Virus record (IMG/VR): IMGVR_UViG_3300001881_000108
Coordinates: 1 to 30,386 of that record
Reading direction: 5' to 3' (one strand)
DNA length: 30,386 nucleotides
Source: a virus
Taxonomy: Duplodnaviria > Caudoviricetes
Shown: positions 2,904 to 26,387 of the stretch, piece after piece
Layout: each line of letters starts with the position of its first letter
Position numbering within the stretch: position 1 is the stretch's first letter
Translations under genes and position numbers: made by a program
The notes under the pieces: generated by a model
Database searches by the model: none
What the model was told of the DNA's origin: nothing
What the model saw: only the letters and a program-made list of their open reading frames with translations

Positions 2904-5453
2904 TTGCGGTTTTGTGAAGAGCACATGAGTGAGGAACAGCGCACGGTAATAGCTCGTGAGCTGTTTGAGGTTAAGGAAGTGCTGAAGGGCAAGGGCGAGC
3001 TGCACGGCCTCTGCCCTGCGCATGACGACCGTAACAAGCCCTCATTCTCGTACAACTACAAGAAGGATCTCTGCAACTGCATGGTGTGCGGTTTTAGTGG
3101 TGATCTGGTTGAGTTGTGGTGCCATGCCAATGGCATGAAGCGGGATATGGGTGGATTCAAGGCCTTTTGTCAGGCTTTCCACATTAACGCATCCAGCGAC
3201 CACGCTCCCACATCCGCTACACAATCCAAGCCAGCAGATGCACCCCCGCAAAAAAAACCGTCTGAAGCCAAGCCAGTAAAGCAATCCACAAAAAAAGAGT
3301 CTGATGCTGCCGATGATGAACCGTTGCAGCCTATCCCCTGGGATCAGTTTAACGCTCTCCCTCCCCTCCCCGAGGATTGGATTGAGCGACTGGCTAAAGA
3401 ACGGGGCTGGACCCGTGAGGTGATGGAGCGTCAGCAGCTGCGGCAGTATGTGCATACCCGCGAGAATGCCAAGCTGTTTAGGGTGTCTCGTATGCCTTTT
3501 GGACAACGCCGGGTTGCTATACCCATCCCTGATGATGCTGGCGACCTGGTTAATATCCGCTTCTACCTGCCCTGGGATCGATCTGAAGACGATGAAAAGG
3601 TTATGTCCTGCGCTGGGCGTGGTGAGGCCCGCCTCTACCCTCCCCCCTCCCAGTGGGGCGCTGGTCCGCTTTGGCAGGTTGAGGGCGAGCCTGATCTGAT
3701 CTGTGGACTAAGCCAGGGCCTGAATGCGGTCACCAAAACAACCGGCGTCAAGGTTTGGAAGGAAGAGTGGAACCAGCACTTTGAAGGCCGTGAGGTGGTT
3801 AATGCCTACGATGCCGACAAGCCAGGCATGCAGGGCAATGAGCGGGTAGGCAAAGATCTGGCCCCCATTACCAAGCTGTTCCGGTATCTGCGTTGGCCTG
3901 GGTTTATGTATGAGGGCACTGACCAGCCGCTGGATGATCCTAAACAGAAGTTTTCTGAATTTGTGCTGACTGAGGCCCGTATGTGGCCGGTTAAGGGCGG
4001 CAAGGATTTAACTGACTGGTTTGTGAAGCATGGCCGGTGCGTGGCTGATCTGAAGGATCTGCTGGCCACGGCTGGCACTATCGCCCCTCCTGATCAGAAG
4101 CCAGCTCTGGGGCCACGTCGGTTTTTTGGTGGACGCAACGGCAACGCCTTCAAACCAGCACTGCTGGCTGAGGCCATTCTTGAAGATACCGATGTTATTT
4201 CAGATCCTGAGACCGGTCTGATCTACAAGTGGAACGAGCGGTTCTGGGAACGGTTCAACCTGGCCTATATCCAAAAGCGCGCACTACTGATGCTGGAACG
4301 TGAGGCATCTACAGCCCGTGCCAGTGACGTTGCCACCATGGTTCGTATTTTGTCCAGCATGGAGCCAGGCAGGCGGATGGATGATTCTCTTGAGTGGATC
4401 TGTCTCAAGAACTGCCTGTTTAACCTGGAGAGCGGCATCACGGCCCAGCATTCACATGACTACTATTTTTCATACATGCTGGGGGTTGAGTTTAATCCTA
4501 ATGCCAGCCCTCGCTGTGATCGCTGGTTGGCGTTCCTGGCTGAGACAGTGCAGGACCCTGTCACCATTATGGCCATGCAGGAGTTTTTCGGATACTGCCT
4601 GACGAATAATACCATCTACGAAAAATGTCTATTCCTGTACGGCCCTGGCTCTGACGGTAAATCAAAGGTGATTAACGTCCTGTCTGCTTTGCTGGGTGAA
4701 CAGAACTGTGCAGCGGTAGGCCTGAAGGATCTTGAAAAAGAGTTCTACAGGGCCTCTCTGTTGGGGAAAAAGCTGAACGTTTCGGCTGAATTTGACAGCG
4801 GGGCTTTCACGTCTGAGTGGTTCAAAAAGCTGATCACCGGCGACCTGATCTCTGCTGCATTCAAGCACAAGGACTTCTTTGAGTTCCGCTTTACCGGCAA
4901 GCTGGTCTTTGCATCCAACCGCTTCCCCAAGGTGCTGGACAATACGGATGGATACTGGCGACGCCTGCTACCCATCCGATTTAAAAAGCAGTTCCTGACC
5001 GTCTCAGACGGCAAGGACATCCACCTTGAAAAGACGCTGCTGTCAGAGCTGGACGGAATATTCGCCTGGGCGCTGGCTGGTCTGGAGCGCCTGTACGAAC
5101 AGGGCGAGTTCTCATGGTCAGATGACATGGAGGATACGCTGAACGAGTACAAGTCCACCAATGATCCGGTGCTGGTATTCGTTCAGGAGCGGCTACTGTG
5201 TCGCGAAAGCGACACCTCTCGTGTCGGCGTAGCCGCACTTTACAAGGCCTATCTACGTTTCTGCAGCGAGGGTAATTTCTCGCCCCACAACCGTATTCAT
5301 TTCGGCAGGGAATTCAAGCGCTGTGTGCCTCACGTCACCAAGGGCAAGCTTCACGGTACCCGTGATGAGGCGTGGATAGGCATTTCTTTGCTTGATGTGG
5401 ACGGCTCTTCCTCCCCCGCCCCCCTCCCGTCAGGCTCCGCTACCAGTGGATAG
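2904..5453 (+). CDS. P4-family DNA primase/helicase (CHC2 Zn finger + TOPRIM + D5-like SF3 helicase)
   Basis: CPAHDD...CMVC Zn finger; 'VEGEPD' and 'YDAD' TOPRIM motifs; Walker A GPGSDGKS; 'FASNRFP', 'YWRRLLPIRF'. GGAGG precedes the TTG start. Confidence 0.92.
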   Translation: MRFCEEHMSEEQRTVIARELFEVKEVLKGKGELHGLCPAHDDRNKPSFSYNYKKDLCNCMVCGFSGDLVELWCHANGMKRDMGGFKAFCQAFHINASSDHAPTSATQSKPADAPPQKKPSEAKPVKQSTKKESDAADDEPLQPIPWDQFNALPPLPEDWIERLAKERGWTREVMERQQLRQYVHTRENAKLFRVSRMPFGQRRVAIPIPDDAGDLVNIRFYLPWDRSEDDEKVMSCAGRGEARLYPPPSQWGAGPLWQVEGEPDLICGLSQGLNAVTKTTGVKVWKEEWNQHFEGREVVNAYDADKPGMQGNERVGKDLAPITKLFRYLRWPGFMYEGTDQPLDDPKQKFSEFVLTEARMWPVKGGKDLTDWFVKHGRCVADLKDLLATAGTIAPPDQKPALGPRRFFGGRNGNAFKPALLAEAILEDTDVISDPETGLIYKWNERFWERFNLAYIQKRALLMLEREASTARASDVATMVRILSSMEPGRRMDDSLEWICLKNCLFNLESGITAQHSHDYYFSYMLGVEFNPNASPRCDRWLAFLAETVQDPVTIMAMQEFFGYCLTNNTIYEKCLFLYGPGSDGKSKVINVLSALLGEQNCAAVGLKDLEKEFYRASLLGKKLNVSAEFDSGAFTSEWFKKLITGDLISAAFKHKDFFEFRFTGKLVFASNRFPKVLDNTDGYWRRLLPIRFKKQFLTVSDGKDIHLEKTLLSELDGIFAWALAGLERLYEQGEFSWSDDMEDTLNEYKSTNDPVLVFVQERLLCRESDTSRVGVAALYKAYLRFCSEGNFSPHNRIHFGREFKRCVPHVTKGKLHGTRDEAWIGISLLDVDGSSSPAPLPSGSATSG

Positions 5454-5470
5454 AGAGGTTGGGCGTTTTC

Positions 5471-5767
5471 TGTCGCAGATGTAGTAGATATGTAGTAGAT
5501 GGTTTGTGGTATCTACTACATAGAAAATCAAATTATATTAATAGCTTACACAGTTTGTAGTAGATGTAGTAGATAGTTTGAACATAAATACATGCGCACA
5601 TGCGCGCGCGTCGGTTTGTTCAGATCATCTACTACATCAAACAAGATAATAAATAGTTATATCTATCTACTACATCTACTACAAAGAAATAAATAGTTAA
5701 TATTAAAGGTTTATTCTGTCGCAGATGATTAAAAGCTATCTACTACAATCTAAGACAATCTACGACA
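5471..5767. repeat. Iteron-like 10-mer array (TGTAGTAGAT/ATCTACTACA); putative phage replication origin
   Basis: Nine exact copies (+: 5480, 5491, 5556, 5565; -: 5511, 5627, 5665, 5674, 5738) and four variants (5471, 5717, 5748, 5758) in an AT-rich intergenic gap right after the primase-helicase. Confidence 0.75.
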
Positions 5768-10826: not shown

Positions 10827-11462
10827 ATGAACAGACCCCCCATAGCAACCGTCATTAACAACAACCAACCAGGCTGGACCAACATTATTGAGACAGCCCC
10901 CAATGTAACCCTTCCGATCGGAACCGAACTGTTTCTCGCAGAAGGCCTGCCCACCCGTGCCGCCATAGGCAGCGCCTTTGGCGGTGGATTCTTCGGCGGT
11001 GAAATAACCATCGCCGGTCAGCGTTATGCCCTTATTGTCGCCCCTAAAGCTGAAGGCGAAAAGATGGCGCTGGAATACAAATTAAACGACCGAAGCACCA
11101 GTGACGGTACCGACATTGACGATGATGGCCTGACCAACACCAACCTCATAAACGATGAAAACCACCCTGCAGCACACTTCTGTCGGTCACTCACCATCGG
11201 AGGTTATGATGACTGGTACCTGCCCTCACGGGATGAGCTGATGATGTTGTGGCGCAACCTGGGGCCACGTCGCAAAAATGTTCCAGAACTTTTCAGTGAA
11301 GATGCAGCAGAAGCGTTTGACACTGAATGGTACTGGTCCAGCACCGAACACGCCCAGTACTCAAACAGTGCTTGGATCGTGGGTTTCGGCGATGGCAACC
11401 AGATCTACAGCACTAAGAACTACGGTTGTGGAGTCCGGGCAGTCCGCAGAATTCAACTTTAA
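10827..11462 (+). CDS. DGR target 1, DUF1566/C-type-lectin-fold protein
   Basis: 'GGGFFGG', 'DDWYLPSRDEL', 'WYWSSTE', C-terminal 'VRAVRR'; contains VR1. Confidence 0.92.
   Translation: MNRPPIATVINNNQPGWTNIIETAPNVTLPIGTELFLAEGLPTRAAIGSAFGGGFFGGEITIAGQRYALIVAPKAEGEKMALEYKLNDRSTSDGTDIDDDGLTNTNLINDENHPAAHFCRSLTIGGYDDWYLPSRDELMMLWRNLGPRRKNVPELFSEDAAEAFDTEWYWSSTEHAQYSNSAWIVGFGDGNQIYSTKNYGCGVRAVRRIQL
11349..11450 (+). repeat. DGR variable repeat VR1
   Basis: 102-bp ungapped match to TR 12581-12682; 12 mismatches, all at TR adenines. Confidence 0.97.
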
Positions 11463-11483
11463 CAATTTAACCATTTATCAATT
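11455..11483 (+). promoter_or_regulatory. IMH-like target-side element, copy 1
   Basis: AACTTTAACAATTTAACCATTTATCAATT, identical after VR2 and absent after TR. Confidence 0.65.
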
Positions 11484-11498
11484 TATGGAGGTTCCGTC

Positions 11499-12023
11499 AT
11501 GGCAAAGAAAACAGCAGTACCCCAGATAGGCGCAGCATTCGGTGGCGGGTTTTACGCAGGCAGCATGGAACTTGATGGCGTCAAGTATGCCTTGGTGGTT
11601 TCACCAAAAGCCCAGGGCGAAAAGATGGAGCTTCAATACAAAAAGAGCAAGCTCAGCACTGCTGATGGTGCTGACACTGACGATGATGGCTTTTACAACA
11701 GCTGTCTGCTGGATAATGCCAACCATCCTGCGGCACACTTCTGTATCAGCCTCCAGATCGGTGAATATGATGACTGGTACCTGCCCTCACGGGATGAGCT
11801 GATGCTGATCTGGATGGCCATGGGGCCAAACCGCAAGAAAACGCCTGATCTGTTCAAAGCCGGTGCTGCAGAAGCATTTGAAGAAAAATGGTACTGGTCC
11901 AGCACTGGAAACGCCCAGTACTCATACTATGCTTGGTTCGTGGGTTTCGACAATGGCTTCCAGGACTACAACGATAAGAACTACGATTGTGGAGTCCGGG
12001 CAGTCCGCAGATTAAAACTTTAA
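11499..12023 (+). CDS. DGR target 2, DUF1566/C-type-lectin-fold protein (paralogue of target 1)
   Basis: 'GGGFYAG', 'DDWYLPSRDEL', 'WYWSST', 'VRAVRR'; GGAGG RBS; contains VR2. Confidence 0.92.
   Translation: MAKKTAVPQIGAAFGGGFYAGSMELDGVKYALVVSPKAQGEKMELQYKKSKLSTADGADTDDDGFYNSCLLDNANHPAAHFCISLQIGEYDDWYLPSRDELMLIWMAMGPNRKKTPDLFKAGAAEAFEEKWYWSSTGNAQYSYYAWFVGFDNGFQDYNDKNYDCGVRAVRRLKL
11910..12011 (+). repeat. DGR variable repeat VR2
   Basis: 102-bp ungapped match to TR; 11 mismatches, all at TR adenines. Confidence 0.97.
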
Positions 12024-12044
12024 CAATTTAACCATTTATCAATT
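12016..12044 (+). promoter_or_regulatory. IMH-like target-side element, copy 2
   Basis: Exact 29-bp copy of 11455-11483. Confidence 0.65.
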
Positions 12045-12061
12045 CAGACAGGAGCAACACC

Positions 12062-12415
12062 ATGGCCCTGGCCTCAACACTTCCCATATACCGCGTTACC
12101 TACGAGTTGCTGCAGGTGGTCACCCGCATAACCAAAGATATGCCACGGGATTACAAGCAGTCACTGGGCAACAAGATTCGTGAGGAATGTGTTGAGCTGA
12201 CGGTGTTGATCTACCGGGCAAACTGCTCCCGTGAAAAGCGCCCACACATTGAAGCTCTGCAAGAACATCTTCAAGTGGCGACGCTTTTGATCAGGCTGTC
12301 AAAGGACATGAAACTGATCAGCACGGGTCAGTTTGCCCAGACCATAGAATTAACTGACCAGATCGGACGGCAGGCATCCGGTTGGTTTAAATCCGCATCG
12401 TCGCCCGCTGCATAG
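12062..12415 (+). CDS. avd: DGR accessory variability determinant (four-helix bundle)
   Basis: 117 aa; 'LPIYRVTYEL...MPRDYKQSLGNKI...LIRLSKDMKLIS...IGRQASGW'; between targets and TR. Confidence 0.9.
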   Translation: MALASTLPIYRVTYELLQVVTRITKDMPRDYKQSLGNKIREECVELTVLIYRANCSREKRPHIEALQEHLQVATLLIRLSKDMKLISTGQFAQTIELTDQIGRQASGWFKSASSPAA

Positions 12416-12580
12416 CCGTCATGGCGACTATGCCTGTGCGAAATAATCTGGTCGTGCCCCTGGGAATGCCCCACGGTTATGCGCCGGCAACGAAACCAGC
12501 GGGAAAGCCTGTAAGGTCGTGGCGCAGTTTCACAATGGATCGGTACCGCCTTCTGTTGTGCAACGTGATCAGCACGACAT

Positions 12581-12682
12581 AACGCCCAGAACTCAAACAA
12601 TGCTTGGATCGTGGGTTTCAACAATGGCAACCAGAACAACAACAATAAGAACAACGATTGTGGAGTCCGGGCAGTCCGCAGA
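12581..12682 (+). ncRNA. DGR template repeat (TR), part of the DGR RNA
   Basis: 37 adenines and 13 AAY codons in the VR frame; template for both VRs. Confidence 0.95.
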
Positions 12683-12692
12683 TCATAACGAT

Positions 12693-13790
12693 GTGGATGT
12701 AACGGTGGATGAGCTGCTGTGCTCCTATTACGACTGCCGCAGGCGCAAGCGCAACACCATCAACGCATTAAGGTTTGAAACCAATTTAGAAAGCAACATC
12801 ATGGGCCTGTACCGGGAACTGGTAGACGGCAGCTATCGCCCCGGTACATCCATCTGCTTTGTCATCACCAGGCCTAAGCCGCGCGAGGTATGGGCTGCAG
12901 ACTTCCGTGACAGGGTTGTGCACCATCTGCTTTACAACCGCATTGCAGATCGTTTCCACAACTCGTTCATAGCTGATAGCTGCGCCTGCATACCAGGAAG
13001 AGGCACGCTGTACGGAGCAAAGCGGCTTGAGCGTAAAATAAGAAGCATTACACAGAACTGGTCACAGAAAGCCTATTACCTGAAGCTGGATATGGCCAAC
13101 TTCTTTGTCAGCATTAACAAGAACATCCTGCGAGATCTGCTGGCCAAGAAAATAACAGATCCCTGGGTCATGTGGTTGGCAGAGACAATCCTTTTTCATG
13201 ATCCGCGGCAGGATGTCAAAATTAAGGGCAGCCGGGGACTACTACAGATGATTCCGACACACAAAAGCTTATTTAATCAACCTCAGCACCTGGGACTGCC
13301 AATTGGAAACCTCAGTAGCCAGTTCTTTGCCAACGTCTACATGGATGCCCTTGATCAGCACGTAAAGCACCAGGTTAAGGCAAAGCATTACATCAGATAC
13401 GTAGATGACATGATTCTGCTGCACGAAGATCCGGCCTGGCTGAACCATGCTGCTGACCAGATCAGCGCATTCGCCAGCGAAAGGCTGGGACTGAAACTCA
13501 ACACGGGCAAGACCATCATCCAGCCTATCCACCGTGGAGTTGATTTTGTTGGCCAAGTCATCAAGCCTTGGCATCGGGTAACACGTAAATCCCTGATGGA
13601 TAATGCACTATCGGCACTATTTTCAAAAATAGGTGAGGACCTGCTTATGAGTGCAAACAGTTATTTGGGGCTGTTCAGGCAATCAACCCACAGCCACCAT
13701 GCCCGTGCGCGGCTGGCACGGATAGCAATCGTCAAAGGGCATTGCGTGGATGGTTCATTCAAAAAAGTATTCCGGAGGCACGCAGCGTGA
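12693..13790 (+). CDS. DGR reverse transcriptase
   Basis: 'KPREVWAADFRDRVVHH', 'LKLDMANFFVSI', DGR-type 'GLPIGNLSSQFFAN', 'YIRYVDD'. The frame is open from 12519; GTG 12693 just past TR was chosen as the likely start (uncertain). Confidence 0.93.
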   Translation: MDVTVDELLCSYYDCRRRKRNTINALRFETNLESNIMGLYRELVDGSYRPGTSICFVITRPKPREVWAADFRDRVVHHLLYNRIADRFHNSFIADSCACIPGRGTLYGAKRLERKIRSITQNWSQKAYYLKLDMANFFVSINKNILRDLLAKKITDPWVMWLAETILFHDPRQDVKIKGSRGLLQMIPTHKSLFNQPQHLGLPIGNLSSQFFANVYMDALDQHVKHQVKAKHYIRYVDDMILLHEDPAWLNHAADQISAFASERLGLKLNTGKTIIQPIHRGVDFVGQVIKPWHRVTRKSLMDNALSALFSKIGEDLLMSANSYLGLFRQSTHSHHARARLARIAIVKGHCVDGSFKKVFRRHAA

Positions 13791-13792
13791 TT

Positions 13793-13969
13793 ATGACCGA
13801 TCACTATTTAAAAATAACGGTACAGCACAACTGCGTTAACTGCGGCAAGGTCAGGCGTGCTGATGTATCTGCAGGAAAGGCTGAAAGGCAAACCACCTGC
13901 ATGGCCTGTAATACAACCTACGTGGTTACAAGAGCCATGCACGTACCAGGATTAATCAACAAACAATAA
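13793..13969 (+). CDS. Small Zn-ribbon protein
   Basis: CVNC...CMAC; GGAGG upstream; stop overlaps the terL start (TAATG). Confidence 0.55.
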   Translation: MTDHYLKITVQHNCVNCGKVRRADVSAGKAERQTTCMACNTTYVVTRAMHVPGLINKQ

Positions 13970-16014
13970 TGCCACAGACTGCCCTCGCCATAGCCCAGGA
14001 CTACTCCTGGGTACCGCAAGCCCCCCCACGGGCCTACCGCCTCTACCCTGGCGAAAGGCTTGTTTTCCGCTCGCGTCCGTACCTTAGCGCATCGGATTGG
14101 GCACAAGGCAACTGCTACATAGCTGTATCGGCCATGCCAGGTTTGTATGATGGCGATGTCACCCCCTATGCAAAAGGCATTTTAGAAGCGTTCTCCACAG
14201 AATGGGTCCGTGAACTATTCCTGGCCGGTGGCAGTCAATCAGCAAAATCGCAACTGCTGCACATCATGTACAGCTACACCGTCGAAAACTGCCCCGGCCC
14301 CGCCCTGCTGGGCATGCAAGATCGCAACACCGTGCGCGAGACCGTTACGGATCGCCTCGTTACCATGCTTAAAAACACCCCATCGTTGCGCCGGTTTGTC
14401 ACCCGCAACCCGGACGACATAACCGGACAAATGATCCGAACCAGAACCTCGGTACTCTACCTCGCCTGGGCTGGATCAGAAGGGCGTCTAGCCAGCAAGC
14501 CAATCTGTCACGGCTTTTTTGATGAGGTTGATTTGTGGGATGAAACCGCCGTAACCAGCGCCCGCGCTCGGTTCAGAACCTATGAATCAATGCTCATGAG
14601 CAAAATCGTCGAAGCCTGCACCGTCTCAACCGCAAAAGGCCGGATCTGGTCCGCGCAACACGAATCCCACTCTAAATGGGATTTTTACGCCATCTGCCCC
14701 TACTGTGGACACCCGCAACCGCTATCGTTCTCGGGTATCCGCTGGGCTGATGGCATAGTAGACCCTGCCGAACTCTCCACCCGGGGCGATGCCTGGTACG
14801 AATGCGAAAAATGCCAAGCCCACTGGGATGAAGAAGACCGCAACGAAGCCGTGCTCAACGGATCAAAACAACACGATCCCCCCCAGATCTGGCACGGCTG
14901 GCGTCCACGTCCAGGCACTCCAGAACGCCACGTCAACCGGCCGGAAAAAATATGGATACACATACCGCCCCTGCTCTCCCGCTTCGTCATGTTCCACGGC
15001 GTAGCTGCGGCCTACCTGCGCCAACTCCAACAGCCAACAGCCGCCAACATCAAATATTTTTACTGCGACTGCTGCGCAATGCCGATACCTGAAATTTCCG
15101 ACGGTATAGAAATCAAAGAGACAGAACTCCTCAAACGCCGTGAAAACTACGCACCAGAACAAGCTGATTGGCAGATCCCCATGGCCGCCTGCGTCCTCAC
15201 CGGCGATAGCGACGTACAGGCCAACCGGATAGAGGCAGAGGTTGTAGCCTGGGGTCCTGGCCATGAATCCTGGGGCATCATCTACAAAATATTCCACGGC
15301 GACACCTCCCGTGATCAGGTCTGGGATGATCTCCACAACTGGGTGCAAACCGTCCGCTTCACCCATGAAACCGGCGCTGAAATGCGGATAGAAAAATTCG
15401 GCATAGACCTGGGGTACGCCGCCCGTAAAGTAGCCAAATTCGTCAAGCGCGCGCCACGGCTCTATGTGGCCCACAAAGGCAGCAACAACGCCAGCGATCC
15501 GTTCATCCCGCGTCGACCATCAAAAAGCAAATACGGCGTGCCGTTCTACCTGCTGGGGGTCAGCGAAGGTAAAGACGATCTATTTTCCTGGATACAGGCC
15601 GGTCAGGATCGCAACGGGCAGATGATTCATGTCGGTCCTCGCGCCTGTCACTGGAGCATGAACTACGATTTTGACTACTTCCGTATGCTCTGCGCTGAAG
15701 CTCCCAAATGGGATAAAAACAAGAAAACAGGTGAGCTTGAAAAGGTGTGGATTCTTAGAGACGGCTATGTCCGCAACGAATCTCTTGATATCAGAGTCGG
15801 TAACATGGCCGTGCGTGAAATCCTCAACCCAAACTATGAGCGCCTGGCTGAGCGCCTTAAAAACGCATCAGCAATAGCTGCAGCGGCAGAAATAGAAAAC
15901 GCGGTAACCAGCAGACGCGCCAACAAAACCAGAGAAAATCAAGAAATAGACCCTGAAGAAGAAACAGCAGACGCCCCAGGGCGTAACCGTCCCGGCTGGT
16001 ATCGCCAGCGATAA
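13969..16014 (+). CDS. terL: Terminase large subunit, lambda GpA family
   Basis: 'GGSQSAKS' Walker A, 'FFDEVD' Walker B, 'CPYCGHPQ...CEKC', 'DVQANRIE', 'RNESLD'. Confidence 0.93.
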   Translation: MPQTALAIAQDYSWVPQAPPRAYRLYPGERLVFRSRPYLSASDWAQGNCYIAVSAMPGLYDGDVTPYAKGILEAFSTEWVRELFLAGGSQSAKSQLLHIMYSYTVENCPGPALLGMQDRNTVRETVTDRLVTMLKNTPSLRRFVTRNPDDITGQMIRTRTSVLYLAWAGSEGRLASKPICHGFFDEVDLWDETAVTSARARFRTYESMLMSKIVEACTVSTAKGRIWSAQHESHSKWDFYAICPYCGHPQPLSFSGIRWADGIVDPAELSTRGDAWYECEKCQAHWDEEDRNEAVLNGSKQHDPPQIWHGWRPRPGTPERHVNRPEKIWIHIPPLLSRFVMFHGVAAAYLRQLQQPTAANIKYFYCDCCAMPIPEISDGIEIKETELLKRRENYAPEQADWQIPMAACVLTGDSDVQANRIEAEVVAWGPGHESWGIIYKIFHGDTSRDQVWDDLHNWVQTVRFTHETGAEMRIEKFGIDLGYAARKVAKFVKRAPRLYVAHKGSNNASDPFIPRRPSKSKYGVPFYLLGVSEGKDDLFSWIQAGQDRNGQMIHVGPRACHWSMNYDFDYFRMLCAEAPKWDKNKKTGELEKVWILRDGYVRNESLDIRVGNMAVREILNPNYERLAERLKNASAIAAAAEIENAVTSRRANKTRENQEIDPEEETADAPGRNRPGWYRQR

Positions 16015-16032: not shown

Positions 16033-16275
16033 ATGTCACACATCCCGGCATTACCGCACGCCAGAGACGAAAAACGGCGCCCTACCTGCAACGTAGAACA
16101 GGCCAGAGAAAGGCTCTGCCCTGATCAGCCGCCCAGTAGACAGCACGTCTACAACCTTTTTAACCGCAACGAGCTTGCCGGGTACTTCACTGGCAACCGC
16201 CGGGGGCTCAGGATCTATCTGGACTCAATTAAAACCTATTTAGCAAAAGACCCTGACGCAGATCCGGACGGGTAA
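16033..16275 (+). CDS. Excisionase/MerR-like (HTH_17, BldC-type) DNA-binding protein
   Basis: 'NVEQARERL...SRQHVYNLFNRNELAG...GLRIYLDSI'; AGGAG RBS. Confidence 0.7.
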   Translation: MSHIPALPHARDEKRRPTCNVEQARERLCPDQPPSRQHVYNLFNRNELAGYFTGNRRGLRIYLDSIKTYLAKDPDADPDG

Positions 16276-16306
16276 GAAAGGAAAATATGCCAAGCTGTAT
16301 CCAGGG

Positions 16307-16428
16307 GCATAACGCAACCGTGATAACCGGCTGGCGACAACGAAGCGGGTTATACACGGACGAGCGAGAGCGGCATTGTACCTATTGCGGACAGAGTAAG
16401 ACAGTCCGAGTTGATTAAGGCGTTAAGC
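16307..16428 (-). other. attC-like recombination site 1 (122 bp)
   Basis: + strand GCATAAC-n7-GATAACCGGCTG...CAGTCCGAGTTGATT-AAGGC-GTTAAGC; imperfect inverted repeat with three unpaired bases on the right arm. Confidence 0.8.
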
Positions 16429-16463
16429 GCCGGGAAGGTGGCTTGAAATGACGGGTGTAAACG

Positions 16464-16643
16464 ATGCCAGACTTTGAGCGTTTGACCGACAATTTAAGGA
16501 TATTAACGGCTCCTGATGCTGTTTCTAGGGAGTGGGCCAGAGGATACCAGGCGGGTAAAACACGTGCCAGGTATGAGGTATTGGCCGTGGTTGTAGTGCT
16601 GTTTTTTCTGGTAGCTCTAATTGGCAAATTTAGTGGTGCTTAA
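16464..16643 (+). CDS. Cassette gene: 59-aa protein with C-terminal TM helix
   Basis: MPDFERLTDN...VLAVVVVLFFLVALIGKFSGA; the TAA stop lies inside the GCTTAAC core of the next site. Confidence 0.6.
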   Translation: MPDFERLTDNLRILTAPDAVSREWARGYQAGKTRARYEVLAVVVVLFFLVALIGKFSGA

Positions 16644-16762
16644 CGAGCAGGATAAGGGGATGGTTAGCCAAGAAGAAATGAACTGTACGGAAGAAGCGTA
16701 CAGTTGGGGCAAAGCAAAATTGAGCGCACGGCTAACCATTCCCACTTGATTAGGCGTTATGC
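16638..16762 (-). other. attC-like recombination site 2 (125 bp)
   Basis: GCTTAAC-n6-GATAAGGGGATGGTTAGCC...GGCTAACCATTCCCACTTGATT-AGGC-GTTATGC. Confidence 0.8.
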
Positions 16763-16785
16763 GACTTAGCGAACGGAGAGAAGAA

Positions 16786-16914
16786 ATGAGAACAATAACA
16801 CCAACTAGAAAATGCCCTACCTGTGGCAAGGATCAGGGCACAGTAGTAGAACATGGCCCCATAGGAGGGTTGCAAATCGTATGGTCATGCCGACATTGCG
16901 GGAGGCGGGGATAG
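16786..16914 (+). CDS. Cassette gene: 42-aa Zn-ribbon protein
   Basis: MRTITPTRKCPTCG...WSCRHCGRRG; GGAG RBS; stops just before the next core site. Confidence 0.55.
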   Translation: MRTITPTRKCPTCGKDQGTVVEHGPIGGLQIVWSCRHCGRRG

Positions 16915-16916
16915 GC

Positions 16917-17041
16917 GCATAACGAAACCGGATAACCGGCTTGCGTGAAATGAAATGACTAAAACACCTAAACAAACCAGAAAGGAAACGCCAGAAAACG
17001 CGCCCACAGTAAGCAAGTCCGCGTTAATTAAGGCGTTATGC
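16917..17041 (-). other. attC-like recombination site 3 (125 bp)
   Basis: GCATAAC-n7-GATAACCGGCTTGC...GCAAGTCCGCGTTAATT-AAGGC-GTTATGC. Confidence 0.82.
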
Positions 17042-17057
17042 CACAGGAGGCCCAGCG

Positions 17058-17555
17058 TTGAGCGGATTGTTTGGAGAGGATATAGAACGGCCAAAATTCA
17101 AAAGTGTGGAATGGTACACGCCAAAGTGGGTTTTCGACGCGTTGGGTGTTGACTTTGATCTGGATCCTGCCAGCCCGCACGATATGGAATCGGCGGTACC
17201 AGCAAAAACCAAGTACACCAAATTTGATAACGGCCTCAAAAAACCTTGGTTCGGTCGAGTCTGGCTAAATCCTCCGTATGGGCCAGACACGGGAGTGTGG
17301 ATCCGCAGGATGATGCAGCATGGTAATGGCATTGCTCTTGTATTCAGCCGCACCGATGCGGCGTGGTGCCAAGATGCTATGCGATCGGCGTCGGCTATGC
17401 TTTTCGTTGCTGGGCGGATTGATTTTGTGCCAGGCATAGAAAACCAGCACAAAAAGAGTAGATGCGGAGCCGGTACCGTTATTTTTGCGTGGGGAACCGA
17501 TTGCGTACAGGCGTTGCGGCGGATGGGCGATCGCGGAATATTGATTGGGGCATAA
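17058..17555 (+). CDS. Cassette gene: phage DNA N6-adenine methyltransferase (phage Dam-like)
   Basis: 'EWYTP', 'FDLDPAS', catalytic 'WLNPPYG', 'SRTDAAW'; AGGAGG RBS; TAA inside the GCATAAC core. Confidence 0.88.
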   Translation: MSGLFGEDIERPKFKSVEWYTPKWVFDALGVDFDLDPASPHDMESAVPAKTKYTKFDNGLKKPWFGRVWLNPPYGPDTGVWIRRMMQHGNGIALVFSRTDAAWCQDAMRSASAMLFVAGRIDFVPGIENQHKKSRCGAGTVIFAWGTDCVQALRRMGDRGILIGA

Positions 17556-17679
17556 CCAACGTGATAACCGGGTTGGTGGAGCCGAAGAGGCGGACCCGGC
17601 ATATCTCATAACTGACGACTACGATACGGACTGAAACAAGGAGCGTCCACCAACTCCGAGTTGATTGAGCCCGTTAGAG
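17550..17679 (-). other. attC-like recombination site 4 (130 bp)
   Basis: GCATAAC-n6-GATAACCGGGTTGGTGGA...TCCACCAACTCCGAGTTGATT-GAGCCC-GTTAGAG. Confidence 0.82.
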
Positions 17680-17695
17680 GGCAGGAGGCTCTAAT

Positions 17696-18019
17696 ATGGA
17701 TGTAAAAATATTGGTTCCCACCGGAACAGACATTAGCAAAATTGAGGCTGAATACCCTGATATTTACCAGGATGACGCCGATTGCGACGGCTACGATATT
17801 TATTTCGTCGGGAAAAGCAGTGACGACGAGGATAACGATCGAGACAGCGAAAACGAGTGGATGACGTGGGATGAATCTCTTGCCTGTTGCGGATTTGTCG
17901 AGGGAGTTTCCCCCGGATCGGAAACAGCTATGGAGGGAAGTGGCGAATGGGCAATGGCAAAAGCCCGTAAAACCGACATATATAAAGCGGCGTTTGATCG
18001 TGGTAAAGCGTCCATCTAA
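17696..18019 (+). CDS. Cassette gene: 107-aa highly acidic protein
   Basis: AGGAGG RBS; D/E-rich; TAA inside the ATCTAAC core. Confidence 0.7.
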   Translation: MDVKILVPTGTDISKIEAEYPDIYQDDADCDGYDIYFVGKSSDDEDNDRDSENEWMTWDESLACCGFVEGVSPGSETAMEGSGEWAMAKARKTDIYKAAFDRGKASI

Positions 18020-18148
18020 CATCCCGTGATAACCGGCTGTATTGGAAAGGAGACGAATGTGATAGGACCCGCGGGGTTTATGCAGGCACCCAATACCCAT
18101 GAAAATAGACGCAGCCCAATACAGTCCGCGTTGATTAAGGCGTTGGGA
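18014..18148 (-). other. attC-like recombination site 5 (135 bp)
   Basis: ATCTAAC-n7-GATAACCGGCTGTATTGG...CCAATACAGTCCGCGTTGATT-AAGGC-GTTGGGA. Confidence 0.82.
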
Positions 18149-18301
18149 GACGATTACGAGCAAAGATTGCGTGAACGATATAACTGCACCGCTGGTGCTG
18201 CAAGCGGCTGGTGTGATGGCACAAAGCGTGGAACAAGGATGCGCTGCCCAGAACTGATACGCTGTAAAAACGGAGAGACCGCTTGCGAGTATGCGCTGTA
18301 G
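18143..18301 (+). CDS. Possible cassette gene: small Cys-rich peptide (start uncertain)
   Basis: 3' part of ORF 18026..18301; fills the interval between GTTGGGAGAC and its complement GTCTCCCAAC. Confidence 0.35.
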   Translation: MGDDYEQRLRERYNCTAGAASGWCDGTKRGTRMRCPELIRCKNGETACEYAL

Positions 18302-18330
18302 TCTCCCAACGAGTATTAGGCCCCCTAATT
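18301..18330 (-). other. Lone core site closing the cassette array (attI-like)
   Basis: Minus strand GCCTAAT-ACTC-GTTGGGAGAC; no attC arms follow. Confidence 0.5.
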
Positions 18331-18376
18331 TTTGATAAATACGACACATTGACCACATAACCGATAACAGCCACAT

Positions 18377-18430
18377 AAAGCGACAAGGGCCACAGTTTAA
18401 CCACCGTGGCCCTTGTCGCTTTTCTGCTTT
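18377..18430 (+). terminator. Intrinsic terminator-like hairpin
   Basis: 17-bp stem AAAGCGACAAGGGCCAC/GTGGCCCTTGTCGCTTT, 12-nt loop, T-rich tail. Confidence 0.7.
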
Positions 18431-18443
18431 ATGAAAATATTTT

Positions 18444-18472
18444 GTCAACCTCGTCAACCTCGTCCACCTCGT
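18444..18472 (+). promoter_or_regulatory. Three tandem 9-bp direct repeats upstream of the head operon
   Basis: GTCAACCTC GTCAACCTC GTCCACCTC GT, ~40 bp before the first head gene. Confidence 0.55.
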
Positions 18473-18510
18473 AAATGACCAGCCCCTTATTGCCATGTTA
18501 ACCCTCACAC

Positions 18511-18744
18511 ATGGCAATATTCACGCTCGAAGAAATAGCCGATCAAATGACGGTATGGAAAGAGGCTCTGCGGGTCACCTCTGGTGGTCAATCTTTCCGG
18601 ATGACGTCCGGCGGCACTGACAGAACCCTCACTATGTCAGATCTGCCTGAAATCAGAATCACCCTCCAGTGGCTGGAAGCTGAGCGTCGTGGCCTGACTG
18701 GGAAGCGCGGTCCGGTTTCAATTATTGCGAGGCCTGCCCGATGA
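18511..18744 (+). CDS. gpW-like head-tail joining protein
   Basis: 77 aa; 'SGGQSFRM...RTLTMSDLPEIR'; directly before the portal. Confidence 0.75.
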   Translation: MAIFTLEEIADQMTVWKEALRVTSGGQSFRMTSGGTDRTLTMSDLPEIRITLQWLEAERRGLTGKRGPVSIIARPAR

Positions 18745-20315
18745 AAAAGCCCCTGGTCCGTCTCAATACCATTGATAAGCTCATCGGCGTGTTCTCGCCT
18801 CAAGAGGCCTTTCGCCGTGGCCGTGCTCGCGCCGCGCTTGATTTTATGGCTGGCTCTGTATCACGCACAGCCGGTGGCAGTAAAGGCACACTCTCAAACT
18901 GGTTCACCCGCCGTATCAACAGATTTTCTGAAGAGCGCGAAAGGGTCAGCATAACTGATCGTGCTGGCGATCTGGTCGCAAACAACCCACATGCCGCCTC
19001 AATCATAGACAGCAGCACGCTTAATACCGTTGGTGGTAAGGGCCTTGTTCCGCAGTCTCGTCCCAACTTCAAGATTTTGGGAATAACCGAAGCCCAGGCA
19101 GAAGATATTGCAGAACAGGCAGAATACTGGTTCGGCATCTGGTCAACTGAATGTGATGCAGAGGGCATTTGTTCGTTCCCCGAAATGCAGTACCAGTCCG
19201 CCTATTCCCTGTTCAAAAACGGTGAATATCTGAACCTGCCCGTGCAGATGGATGTCGGTGTAGATCGCCACTTTTCCTTTGCCCTGCAGGCCCTTGATAA
19301 CCTCCGGCTGCGTACTCCTCGTGATATGCGTAACGATAAAGATGTTCGGGACGGCATCCGCCTGGGTAACCACAACCAGCCTCTAACCTACTACATCGCA
19401 GATCCTGATGACGGCAGGCTTACCACTAACCTGCAGTCACAAAGTTTTCAGGACATAGCTGCCCGCCGTGGTCACCAGCCAAATATATTCCATGGATTCC
19501 ACAAAAAAGATGCAGAGCAGGTTCGCGGCGTATCTATCCTGGCCCCCATTACCAAGCTGTTTAAGGATTACGACGATTATATTGACTTCCACATTGTGGG
19601 CGAGATCCTCGCCGCTTCGTTCCCGGTATTTATCGAGACACCGTTAAGCGAAGAACCGGAAGACTTCACCGGTGATGATGTTAAAACCAACCGCTCCGGC
19701 CAACGGATTAAAACCGTTAATCCCGGTACCGTAACCTATGGCGAAGTGGGCCAAAAACCGCACATTCTAAAATCAGAGCGGTCTCAGGGTTTCGGCGTAT
19801 TCCTTGAAACCGTCCTGCGCGCCCTGGGTGCCGGTGCTGGCCTGCCCTATGAGATAGTCGCAAAGGATTTCAGCAAAACAAACTACTCCTCTGCCCGGGC
19901 GGCCATGTTGGAAGCCTACCGCGTTTTCTGCTTTTACCAAGCGCTGTTGGAAACAAAATTTTGCCAGCCGGTCTGGGCAATGGTCTTTGAAGAAGCCTGG
20001 TTGCGTGGGCGGATCAAACTGCCCAAGTCTGCACCTGATTTTTACACTGCCCGTGCTGCCTATACTAACGCCAAGTGGACTCCTCCAAAGCGTGGCTCTA
20101 TTGATCCAGTCAAAGAGGTTGCCGCCGGTAAAGAGGCCATTATCAGCAACATGGGCACCCTGGCTGATTGGTATGCAGAGCAAGGACAAGATTGGCAAGA
20201 GGCGCTACGGCAGATTGCCAGAGAGCGGAAGTTAATGACTGACCTGGGTCTTACCATGGCCGATCTGCCCGGATTCGATCTGGGAAAACTGGCAACCCAG
20301 CCAGACCACCAGTAG
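18741..20315 (+). CDS. Portal protein, lambda family
   Basis: 'RAGDLVANNPHA', 'EQVRGVSILAP', 'DFSKTNYSSARAAMLE', 'IDPVKEV'. Confidence 0.93.
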   Translation: MKKPLVRLNTIDKLIGVFSPQEAFRRGRARAALDFMAGSVSRTAGGSKGTLSNWFTRRINRFSEERERVSITDRAGDLVANNPHAASIIDSSTLNTVGGKGLVPQSRPNFKILGITEAQAEDIAEQAEYWFGIWSTECDAEGICSFPEMQYQSAYSLFKNGEYLNLPVQMDVGVDRHFSFALQALDNLRLRTPRDMRNDKDVRDGIRLGNHNQPLTYYIADPDDGRLTTNLQSQSFQDIAARRGHQPNIFHGFHKKDAEQVRGVSILAPITKLFKDYDDYIDFHIVGEILAASFPVFIETPLSEEPEDFTGDDVKTNRSGQRIKTVNPGTVTYGEVGQKPHILKSERSQGFGVFLETVLRALGAGAGLPYEIVAKDFSKTNYSSARAAMLEAYRVFCFYQALLETKFCQPVWAMVFEEAWLRGRIKLPKSAPDFYTARAAYTNAKWTPPKRGSIDPVKEVAAGKEAIISNMGTLADWYAEQGQDWQEALRQIARERKLMTDLGLTMADLPGFDLGKLATQPDHQ

Positions 20316-24792: not shown

Positions 24793-25062
24793 ATGACCAC
24801 CGCCATAACCTTCAAAGCCTCAATAAAAGAATCCCTGATCTCTCTTGATCAGACGCTAAACACCCGCATAAAAATTGCGGATGATGGCTACGGTTATGCA
24901 GACGAAATGCTCTCAGCCCGCGCCTGGCGGTTACGGGATAAATCACGGCTGTATGTCTGGATAGATCGGCTGTTCTTCTGGGACAAAGACCACTGTGAAG
25001 AGTGCTACAAAATTGAGCTTGAGCGGAAGCAGTTGCCGCCTGAGTATAGGGTATTCAAATAA
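24793..25062 (+). CDS. Conserved small phage protein
   Basis: 'ISLDQTLNT...ADEMLSARAWR...IDRLFFWDKDHC' pattern common near phage tail genes. Confidence 0.65.
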   Translation: MTTAITFKASIKESLISLDQTLNTRIKIADDGYGYADEMLSARAWRLRDKSRLYVWIDRLFFWDKDHCEECYKIELERKQLPPEYRVFK

Positions 25063-26387
25063 TGGCAACTGAATATTACCTTGTAACTCAAAATGGTTCT
25101 GCTGGCATCTATTGGGCTGGTTTGCCGGAGTTTGATCTGTTTGATGGCAGCAACTATAAGTATCGTTACTATTGGGGCGGGGCTTATCAGGTATATGCTG
25201 ATTTCAACACACTGGAAGACAACCGCATAAATCAGGCTGGAAACCGCGGCCCATCGAAAAGCATTGTTATTGAGGTGCAGGGCAAATGGGATGACACCAG
25301 CACATGGAACAGTAGTACGGTGTGGCTTGGTTATTATTCAGTTACTATAACTACTAAAATAAATGGAGTACGCGATGCTGCTGCTTTTCATAACGGCGTG
25401 CCAGGCGGTGGTTTCCGCAGAATTGTAAATACAACGTACCCGGCATATCAAATACAAAAACAGTCAAATATGACTATTGATGGATTGGAAATTATCAACC
25501 AGAACACAACGGGCGGTTATGCCATAAGAGTTTACTATGCAGCTAATGCACATATAAAAAACTGTATTATTACTGGGTATAGAGGTTTGGAATGTTTGAG
25601 TTATGCCAGTAAGTACCAAAATAATATATTTAGAAACTGCCTTTTGTATGGGATTAGTATTAATGCAGGATTCGGTTATTCCGACGTAGTAAACAATAAT
25701 TTAGCTACAGGATGTGGCACAGGTATATATAGCGATGGTGCAACAACGTATGCAACAGTAATTAACAATGTTTCCGTAGGCAATACAACAAACTGGACAG
25801 CAACAGGAATTGGTCCAAACGGATATGCTGCAAATAATGCGGGCCTATCTGGAGAGGCATGGGATACCAGTGGATCAACCAGGATAACTGTCGCCGTCAC
25901 CGATTTTAATAATCTTTCTGGCGGTGATTTTACCTATGTATCAGGCAGCCCGCTTATTAACTCTGGCATCGATTTTGTAGCGTTTTCCGCTGAAAATAGA
26001 GACATACTGGATAAGTATCGCCCGGATTACGAATCAGCAACCTACCCCAGTAACCTGTGGGATATTGGTCCGTTTGAGTACGACCATGGAGAAGGCAACA
26101 CCCCCCCCGCTTCCTGCACTATAACCATATCCGCCCCTGTCTCTCTGGTTGGTGCTGAAATCCGCATTTACGATAACGACAACACTCCTGCCGGTTCATT
26201 TGGTACTGAATTGGCTGGCACTGAATCCCACACTGCAAGCACCTACACCTACACCGGCCTGCAGGGCAACTCCATTGCTATCCAGATCATGCAATCCGGC
26301 TATGAAGAGTTTGTCCAGGTCTACACCGTACCAGCAACCGATACCCTTGATTTTTACGCACGCATGACCCCTGACACTAACGCCTAA
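25062..26387 (+). CDS. Putative beta-helix virion protein (tailspike/adhesin-like)
   Basis: Asn/Gly/Tyr-rich repeats ('IKNCII', 'YQNNIF', 'VNNNLA', 'INNVSVGN') and 'WDIGPFEY'; AT-rich core. Confidence 0.6.
   Translation: MATEYYLVTQNGSAGIYWAGLPEFDLFDGSNYKYRYYWGGAYQVYADFNTLEDNRINQAGNRGPSKSIVIEVQGKWDDTSTWNSSTVWLGYYSVTITTKINGVRDAAAFHNGVPGGGFRRIVNTTYPAYQIQKQSNMTIDGLEIINQNTTGGYAIRVYYAANAHIKNCIITGYRGLECLSYASKYQNNIFRNCLLYGISINAGFGYSDVVNNNLATGCGTGIYSDGATTYATVINNVSVGNTTNWTATGIGPNGYAANNAGLSGEAWDTSGSTRITVAVTDFNNLSGGDFTYVSGSPLINSGIDFVAFSAENRDILDKYRPDYESATYPSNLWDIGPFEYDHGEGNTPPASCTITISAPVSLVGAEIRIYDNDNTPAGSFGTELAGTESHTASTYTYTGLQGNSIAIQIMQSGYEEFVQVYTVPATDTLDFYARMTPDTNA

Follow-up and report, generated by a model that had tools for sequence, protein, structure and literature searches.

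A phage-borne, integron-like cassette array with a host-type attI and reversed gene polarity

Between the terminase gene terL and the gpW-like head-tail gene of a lambda-like provirus lies a run of five inverted repeats separated by short genes. The locus raises the question of whether a phage can carry an integron-type platform for gene cassettes and, if so, whose integrase serves it. The DNA studied here, referred to below as the window, is the whole 30,386-nucleotide stretch of IMG/VR record IMGVR_UViG_3300001881_000108, a 30.4-kb provirus record that is 41% complete. A preliminary description of this DNA had proposed a platform for cassette capture; our analysis upholds that reading and supplies the attI site that was missing from it. 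In our judgment the locus is probably a phage-borne integron platform, consisting of a host-type attI and five attC-bounded cassettes with genes on the attC bottom strand, likely loaded and reshuffled in trans by the IntI integrase of a Geobacteraceae host. The parts of this explanation that have direct support are the anatomy of the sites, the homology of attI, the limits of the cassettes, their polarity, the absence of the block from relatives and its recurrence in many phages.

The attC sites and the attI site

The imperfect inverted repeats of 122-135 bp are all present as first described and occur nowhere else in the window:

attC1: 16307-16428, plus strand, which is the bottom (recombined) strand; predicted crossover between AA and C at 16312/16313
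attC2: 16638-16762, plus strand; compensatory CC/GG swap
attC3: 16917-17041, plus strand; first extrahelical base A instead of G
attC4: 17550-17679, plus strand
attC5: 18014-18148, plus strand; GGAG and a GTG start in its loop

An arm-pattern search of the 30 kb found 5 left-arm and 5 right-arm matches on the plus strand, all within 16307-18148, and on the minus strand one stray left arm and no right arms. The shared arms are confirmed in five sites, with a left spacer of 6-8 nt rather than the 6-7 nt initially given. All five pair in one register that leaves three bases free on the right arm: G/A/T in attC1, attC2 and attC4, A/C/T in attC3, and G/C/T in attC5. The three unpaired right-arm bases first proposed are therefore found in every site, attC3 departing only in its A for the first extrahelical G. 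The corrected pairing of attC2 gives the swapped pairs GATAAGGGG / CCCACTTGATT. A 65-codon open reading frame (ORF) begins in the attC3 loop at 16955.

The identification of the repeats as attC sites is borne out by the R and L boxes, the extrahelical bases, the unpaired spacer and the variable loop, all of which were found, and by covariation of the arms. In an alignment of 26 sites, pairing holds in 99.1% of cells, both sides have changed in 7 of the 13 inner pairs, and the covariation score is 0.311 as against 0.071 for shuffled alignments (0 of 500 shuffles reach it); this alignment consists of hand-picked window, viral and chromosomal sites with a structure drawn by the analyst on related sequences, and leans favourable. 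Extrahelical bases opposite the AAC arm mark the bottom strand, which is the one recombined (Nivina et al. 2016, PMC5027507). Because the extrahelical bases of the window sit opposite the AAC arm, its plus strand corresponds to the canonical attC bottom strand. Two sites have close counterparts in IntI-bearing phages: attC3 is 85% identical to a site in L017 and attC4 84% identical to one in L010 (labels of this kind are our own). On sequence grounds the five sites are assigned to the attC family of Trichlorobacter/Geobacter chromosomal integrons. Variants with C rather than G as first extrahelical base and a short right spacer were seen in phages L017 (3580-3635) and L323 (15685-15800).

The array terminates in a junction that has no attC body, and attI lies next to it:

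attI, Trichlorobacter type: 18308-18367, plus strand; predicted insertion point 18309/18310
terminator-like hairpin: 18377-18422, plus strand; 20-bp inverted repeat followed by a T-rich run (consensus match only), closing the block

Over 60 bp from 18308, attI shows 93% identity to the sequence that ends the array of phage L005/L024; the terL of that phage is only 27% identical. Homologues end the arrays of L020, L147 and L148, and a more distant one that of L026. On the bacterial side, T. thiogenes and a Geobacter metagenome-assembled genome carry an attI homologue between the first cassette and intI (TIGR02249 scores of 477 and 493 bits). The motif is single-copy in 14 of 124 Geobacteraceae (Trichlorobacter family) genomes, 12 of which have an intI match 136-783 bp behind it. 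The window thus shares with complete integrons an attI at the array end. With the chromosomal integrons of Trichlorobacter/Geobacter it shares the attC family, with three extrahelical bases and a 5-nt spacer on the 3' arm, as well as the attI motif and the attC-to-attI geometry. It differs from them in having genes on the bottom strand facing attI, with neither intI nor the cassette promoter Pc beside them, in having heterogeneous sites rather than one 132-bp repeat, and in its phage-type cargo.

Cassettes, their limits and their cargo

Each site is followed by a GTT flank which, beyond the core, is complementary in 30 of 35 positions to the AAC flank closing the same gene unit, compared with 18 of 35 positions for the left arm of its own site; 2 of 720 permutations reach 30. 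Pairing of this kind is a trace left by circular cassettes, and it reveals a fifth unit, 18020-18309, with 10 of 10 end positions complementary and no attC body behind it. The preliminary description was right about five sites with short genes between them, but had overlooked this fifth cassette along with attI. The genes are as follows:

cassette 1 gene: 16464-16643, plus strand; 59 aa, hydrophobic stretch at C-terminus; stop in next TAAC core
cassette 2 gene: 16786-16914, plus strand; Zn-ribbon-like, match below Pfam cut-off; 42 aa from an ATG with a ribosome-binding site (RBS)
cassette 3 gene: 17058-17555, plus strand; phage Dam-type N6-adenine methyltransferase, 165 aa; stop in next core
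cassette 4 gene: 17696-18019, plus strand; 107-aa acidic protein; stop in next core
cassette 5 ORF: 18059-18301, plus strand; 80 aa, predicted; start inside attC5, reading through the right arm

Three genes do stop within the TAAC core as had been noted, at 16643, 17555 and 18019. The cassette 1 protein has a 59% homologue within an inverted cassette of the complete phage L028, and the cassette 2 gene would encode 51 aa if its start were taken at 16759. The Dam assignment is supported by PF05869, above cut-off, and by phrog_111. The cassette 4 protein has 22 homologues, none of them named, and an Atlas search gave no usable match to it; the cassette 5 ORF matched no family, hence its coding status is only predicted. 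Because the 165-aa gene is a Dam methyltransferase and 0 of 6 minus-strand ORFs of the array match PHROGs, the genes are read on the plus strand. A captured piece of host array read on the minus strand is ruled out, the real genes being on plus. Dam homologues P0005, P0009 and P0015 have C-terminal extensions starting PN or HN, as would be expected from read-through of the AAC core into attC. The last 10 letters of the flank before attC1 (16304-16313) are the same as the end of the Dam cassette and may be the remnant of a lost cassette.

Comparison with relatives bears on both the variability of the locus and the position of its breakpoints. In relative L322, terL and a small helix-turn-helix (HTH)-like gene are separated from the portal module by a short spacer, array and attI both being absent, and a contig of run X9 joins 16275 to 18434, so that the whole block 16276-18433 is missing, terminator included. 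In L323, with terL 50% and terS 57% identical to those of the window, other genes occupy the array position. Gene content at the terL-gpW locus is therefore variable, as had been predicted. Breakpoints at the AAC/GTT cores, also predicted, were found in related elements: in phage L149 the copies of a duplicated cassette agree fully from the left CTAAC on, attC and gene included, and in a contig of run X4 attC3 plus dam (26 differences in 627) extend as far as 17556, where a different attC takes over. End complementarity and these breakpoints together suggest that the cassettes are discrete units with their crossover in the AAC/GTT core. Empty attC sites inserted randomly at stop codons are ruled out as an origin of the layout, since they would not yield paired cassette ends. 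IntI would bind the folded plus strand and cut it at the left core between AA and C, so that a cassette would comprise an attC body and the gene that follows. The entry point for new cassettes would be 18309/18310, which would make cassette 5 the newest.

A different assignment would have attC travel with the preceding gene, as an ordinary cassette on plus, through a tyrosine recombinase other than IntI or through recombination of the opposite strand. It draws on two observations: shared attC bodies frequently stop directly behind the GTT of the right arm and are followed by different genes, and top-strand recombination does occur, at low rates (Nivina et al. 2016, PMC5027507). We consider it very improbable, given that the terminal cassette has no attC body behind it, that the breaks in the L149 duplicate and the X4 contig fall at the left core, that the neighbouring recombinases are IntI by model score in 12 of 12 cases tested, and that attC and attI both match an IntI-linked chromosomal family. 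Contigs of runs X4, X7 and X9 have attC2 and about 20 bp more in common with the window (16651-16786, stopping short of the ATG at 16786) and carry other sequence beyond; an attC-plus-RBS leader fused to different genes may be a lead on cassette genesis.

Rather than DNA recombination sites, the repeats could also be elements that act at the RNA level, as hairpins for processing or leaders for translation, and that owe their spread to homologous recombination. Several viral ORFs do have their start in the loop of the hairpin and continue across the right arm. This explanation would leave attI, the linkage to intI, the pairing of own ends and the breakpoints in a 3-base core unaccounted for, and it is the least likely of all those weighed here. 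An Rfam search of the window gave no match at the attC sites; its only match was RT-15.

Gene polarity in viral and chromosomal arrays

The side of the extrahelical bases and the strand of the genes agree with the inverted polarity initially proposed, in which the minus strand is the canonical attC top strand and the genes are on plus. The arm pattern matched 27 stretches of viral and 119 of genome sequence; many of the genome matches are single and due to chance. ORF fill was used to score polarity in 17 viral loci, one of them the window, and in 26 genome loci, selected because they have sites; duplicates were dropped, as were units of more than 1300 or fewer than 60 bp. The 57 viral units (the window's 5 included) comprised 36 inverted, 0 canonical and 21 unclear, and the 77 genome units 33 canonical, 11 inverted and 33 unclear. 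Some of the inverted genome units are on likely prophage contigs, and two have homologues in inverted phage-type arrays. Reversed gene polarity is a phage trait. Many of the viral ORFs begin in the attC loop and run through the sole open frame of the right arm. At 80 genome intI loci examined as a host-side control, no more than 3 units could be scored (2 canonical, 1 unclear), which leaves the 77-unit count as the chromosomal control. In the T. thiogenes chromosomal integron, the cassette adjoining attI (L052 2151-2384) scores as inverted and has no homologue among the loci compared.

A scan of both strands for PHROG families, covering 21 of 80 phage intI loci, found matches for 39 of 121 ORFs on the intI strand versus 0 of 107 on the other; with two reverse-layout loci set aside (19 loci), the figures are 36 of 108 bottom-strand and 0 of 98 top-strand ORFs. 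Named cargo beside phage intI consists mostly of DNA methyltransferases, PAPS-reductase-like, Mom-like, Lar-like and radical SAM proteins. The cargo of the window's array, with DNA methyltransferases foremost, likely serves counter-defence.

Individual antisense cassette genes with their own promoter are known, for example in toxin-antitoxin cassettes. A search of the literature by title and abstract opening, with subscription papers outside its scope, found no uniformly inverted phage cassette arrays. Cassettes that face the promoter on insertion have never been seen, according to Nivina et al. 2016 (PMC5027507). Qi et al. 2023 (PMC9892861) reported 17 phage clusters of attC sites lacking an integron integrase (CALINs), and IntI1 recombined 5 of the 6 phage attC sites they tested. 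Those elements resemble the window in being attC arrays in phage genomes with frequent DNA methyltransferases; the complete integrons of that study include host and class 1 pieces, and the passages of it consulted make no mention of inverted cargo or phage IntI lineages. TJE1, the sole case from it that we compared, differs in being canonical, with bottom strands on minus and genes on plus, and an inverted cassette gene of L017 shares 65% identity with the TJE1 gene orf3. Inverted-integrase (reverse) integrons, as in Treponema (Cury et al. 2016, PMC4889954), are alike in that intI and the cassette genes are co-directional. They differ in that intI is turned there relative to the attC sites, whereas related phage loci keep the usual intI geometry, downstream of the array, and have the genes turned instead. 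A reverse co-directional layout, with intI first followed by attC sites and canonical genes, was seen in viral contigs L189, L201 and L202.

Integrase source, phage setting and meaning

With no intI nearby and at least 2 attC sites, the locus qualifies as a CALIN. No tyrosine recombinase was found in the window by PF00589, and gpW follows attI where a complete integron has intI beside its array; the genes lie on the plus, bottom strand rather than on the top strand under Pc, and with no intI in the window the locus is not an inverted-integrase integron. It is integron-like, with true attC and attI, yet lacks two features of a complete integron, an adjacent intI and genes under Pc. The preliminary description had proposed an IntI acting in trans on the ground that no recombinase was present, an absence that proves little because the record is only 41% complete. 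The proposal itself is likely, because attI is of host type and because Geobacteraceae genome G121 holds both an intI-less prophage attI and a chromosomal intI. Its Mu-like prophage has two inverted attC sites, a methyltransferase cassette and this attI, with no intI beside them; its chromosome has an intI with the same attI type and canonical cassettes. G121 also carries three other IntI genes, one of L010 phage type. Arrays are likewise present without IntI in the complete phage records G016 and G018. From these comparisons, active use of the host IntI seems probable. Integron recombination is SOS-induced (Nivina et al. 2016, PMC5027507) and would coincide with prophage induction.

Phages can also encode the enzyme. 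Among 19 viral records, 6 have a tyrosine recombinase and 2 of 5 tested pass the IntI cut-off (TIGR02249); those two IntI genes lie just beyond the last cassette, co-directional with the cassettes. A search with an IntI alignment found 142 viral contigs, of which 80 were kept, and 12 of 12 proteins tested, 11 of them from the kept contigs, passed the cut-off. In most related phage loci intI lies beyond attI, with attC geometry as usual. At 31 of 35 phage intI loci with attC within 1.5 kb upstream, a junction with at least 8 of 10 paired bases sits just before intI, a count that takes the best of all AAC in 270 bp, with no null computed. In a tree with 58 viral IntI proteins and 68 from genomes there are 6 label changes versus 42 when shuffled; built by a quick method with a midpoint root and a host sample from 6 of 64 collection parts, the tree suggests several phage lineages and does not fix their origin. 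An IntI-like gene annotated xerD is present in the deposited phage Rctr41k (L326, KX853513) at 4680-5678, among co-directional small genes and methyltransferases.

The window's phage might then encode its own IntI, in the part of the prophage beyond the record. L323, L010 and L017 encode IntI above the TIGR02249 cut-off, the last two share attC variants with the window, and 41% completeness leaves the space. In those three phages, however, intI directly follows a different, short attI-like junction, whereas the window's attI is of host type, unlike the junctions preceding phage intI genes, and is followed by the hairpin and gpW. Moreover, L323 has its intI after an array before terS, and the equivalent position in the window is without a recombinase. 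A phage-encoded enzyme is accordingly quite unlikely.

It is unlikely, too, that we are looking at the frozen relic of a true integron, an array that IntI once assembled, that came here in a single block and whose shuffling has ceased. Such a relic would fit the finding of the same array in two runs with no variant, the predicted poor folding of sites 1 and 3, the loss of G in site 3, and the absence of the whole block with its terminator from a relative. It fits less well with an attI 93% conserved relative to a phage so divergent in terL, with the near-perfect complementarity retained by the cassette ends, or with the occurrence of attC3 plus dam and other attC bodies in other contexts.

Several observations weigh against an active platform served by a host IntI. 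Whole-site folding z-scores on plus are -3.0, -4.3, -3.5, -0.8 and +1.5 for sites 1-5, so that site 5 is no more stable than shuffled sequences; the minimum-energy fold of sites 1 and 3 is not the attC hairpin, the circular form included, and unconstrained folding gave no information for 3 of the 5 sites. Site 3 is without the first extrahelical G. By ORF length alone, the units beside phage intI divide into 15 inverted, 12 canonical and 21 unclear; the 12 'canonical' calls are ORFs without any family match in GC-rich loci, and it took the PHROG scan to settle the strand. The X4 and X9 joints come from related elements at 88-90% likeness with unknown letters between. Runs X1 (possibly the source) and X2 show the array without differences in the listed pieces and no excision joint, in contigs that drop rare variants. 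A sigma-70 promoter scan of the array gave 0 matches on either strand, and its expression is only predicted. The Geobacteraceae host is inferred from the site family and related prophages rather than read from the contig. Finally, the incomplete record leaves room for a phage intI elsewhere, and a close relative, L323, encodes one.

The modules of the prophage are primase, sliding clamp, terS, a diversity-generating retroelement (DGR), terL, gpW, portal, head/tail genes and endolysin. The array is flanked as follows:

terL (gpA type), upstream flank: 13969-16014, plus strand; Pfam GpA_ATPase/GpA_nuclease
likely HTH regulator, last native gene before the block: 16033-16275, plus strand; 80 aa, no family match
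short tandem repeats: about 18450-18475, preceding gpW
gpW-like head-tail adaptor: 18511-18744, plus strand; phrog_118 / phrog_21 for the gpW-portal pair
portal gene: 18741-20315, plus strand; directly after the gpW-like gene

The order is terL, small HTH-like gene, array, hairpin, tandem repeats and gpW, and the HTH-like gene has a 44% identical counterpart between terL and the gpW position in the empty relative L322. Because of the arrangement in an empty relative, the repeats before gpW are suggested to mark a late promoter. The array had been placed inside the late region; it probably lies outside the gpW-portal late operon. Transcription entering from the phage operon upstream would carry through its genes, most of which have their own RBS, as far as the hairpin at 18377, and no Pc would be involved. 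In RNA run X12 only short contigs fell in this region, on attC arms and on 18364-18500, and they were uninformative as to strand or expression. The best portal relatives (61% and 54%; 4 of 124 Trichlorobacter-family genomes matched) are prophages. Searches for close relatives by single proteins gave one distant terL locus and, beyond that, only the metagenome contig of the window itself, and a portal peptide pattern found none in genome_contigs.

The DGR is complete (10827-13790), with two Lcl/C-type lectin targets, Avd, a template repeat (Rfam RT-15, 12399-12584) and a reverse transcriptase. Most mismatches of template versus target are at A (15 of 23 and 13 of 20, counting ragged ends), and the position between terS and terL is unusual for a tail-fibre DGR. 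No link was seen that would give its reverse transcriptase a part in making cassettes: the DGR targets two Lcl genes, and array-bearing relatives gave no reverse transcriptase match in the stretches examined, which are parts of genomes. A low-GC stretch (0.40-0.43) at 25000-26000 lies within a 441-aa ORF of the tail region that has no PHROG match.

Integrons have been treated as bacterial devices, with strand selection placing genes under Pc. The same chemistry is apparently used by lambda-like and Mu-like phages with the genes turned, with or without an IntI of their own. A host cassette caught in the phage array would be antisense, and a phage cassette caught by a host integron would face away from its Pc; because polarity is reversed, one recombinase would serve two pools that do not express each other's genes. 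More broadly, we give about an even chance to the idea that temperate phages run an integron class of their own, made up of phage-specific IntI lineages and of platforms without an integrase that use the host's by way of a copied attI, in which reversed polarity separates expression of the pools and cassettes can pass from one polarity to the other by flipping of the attC body; one gene family does occur in both polarities, canonical in TJE1 and inverted in L017. Near-identical attC bodies with unrelated genes, together with that family, make cassette genesis more testable, and tools that assume canonical polarity would misassign such cassettes. The inverted layout is seen again in dozens of further phage contigs and likely enables phages to exchange accessory genes through IntI, offering a mechanism for rapid turnover of small accessory genes between the replication and packaging modules. 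Integrons are now known as anti-phage defence banks; if the idea of a phage integron class is true, phages hold a mirror-image bank for counter-defence.

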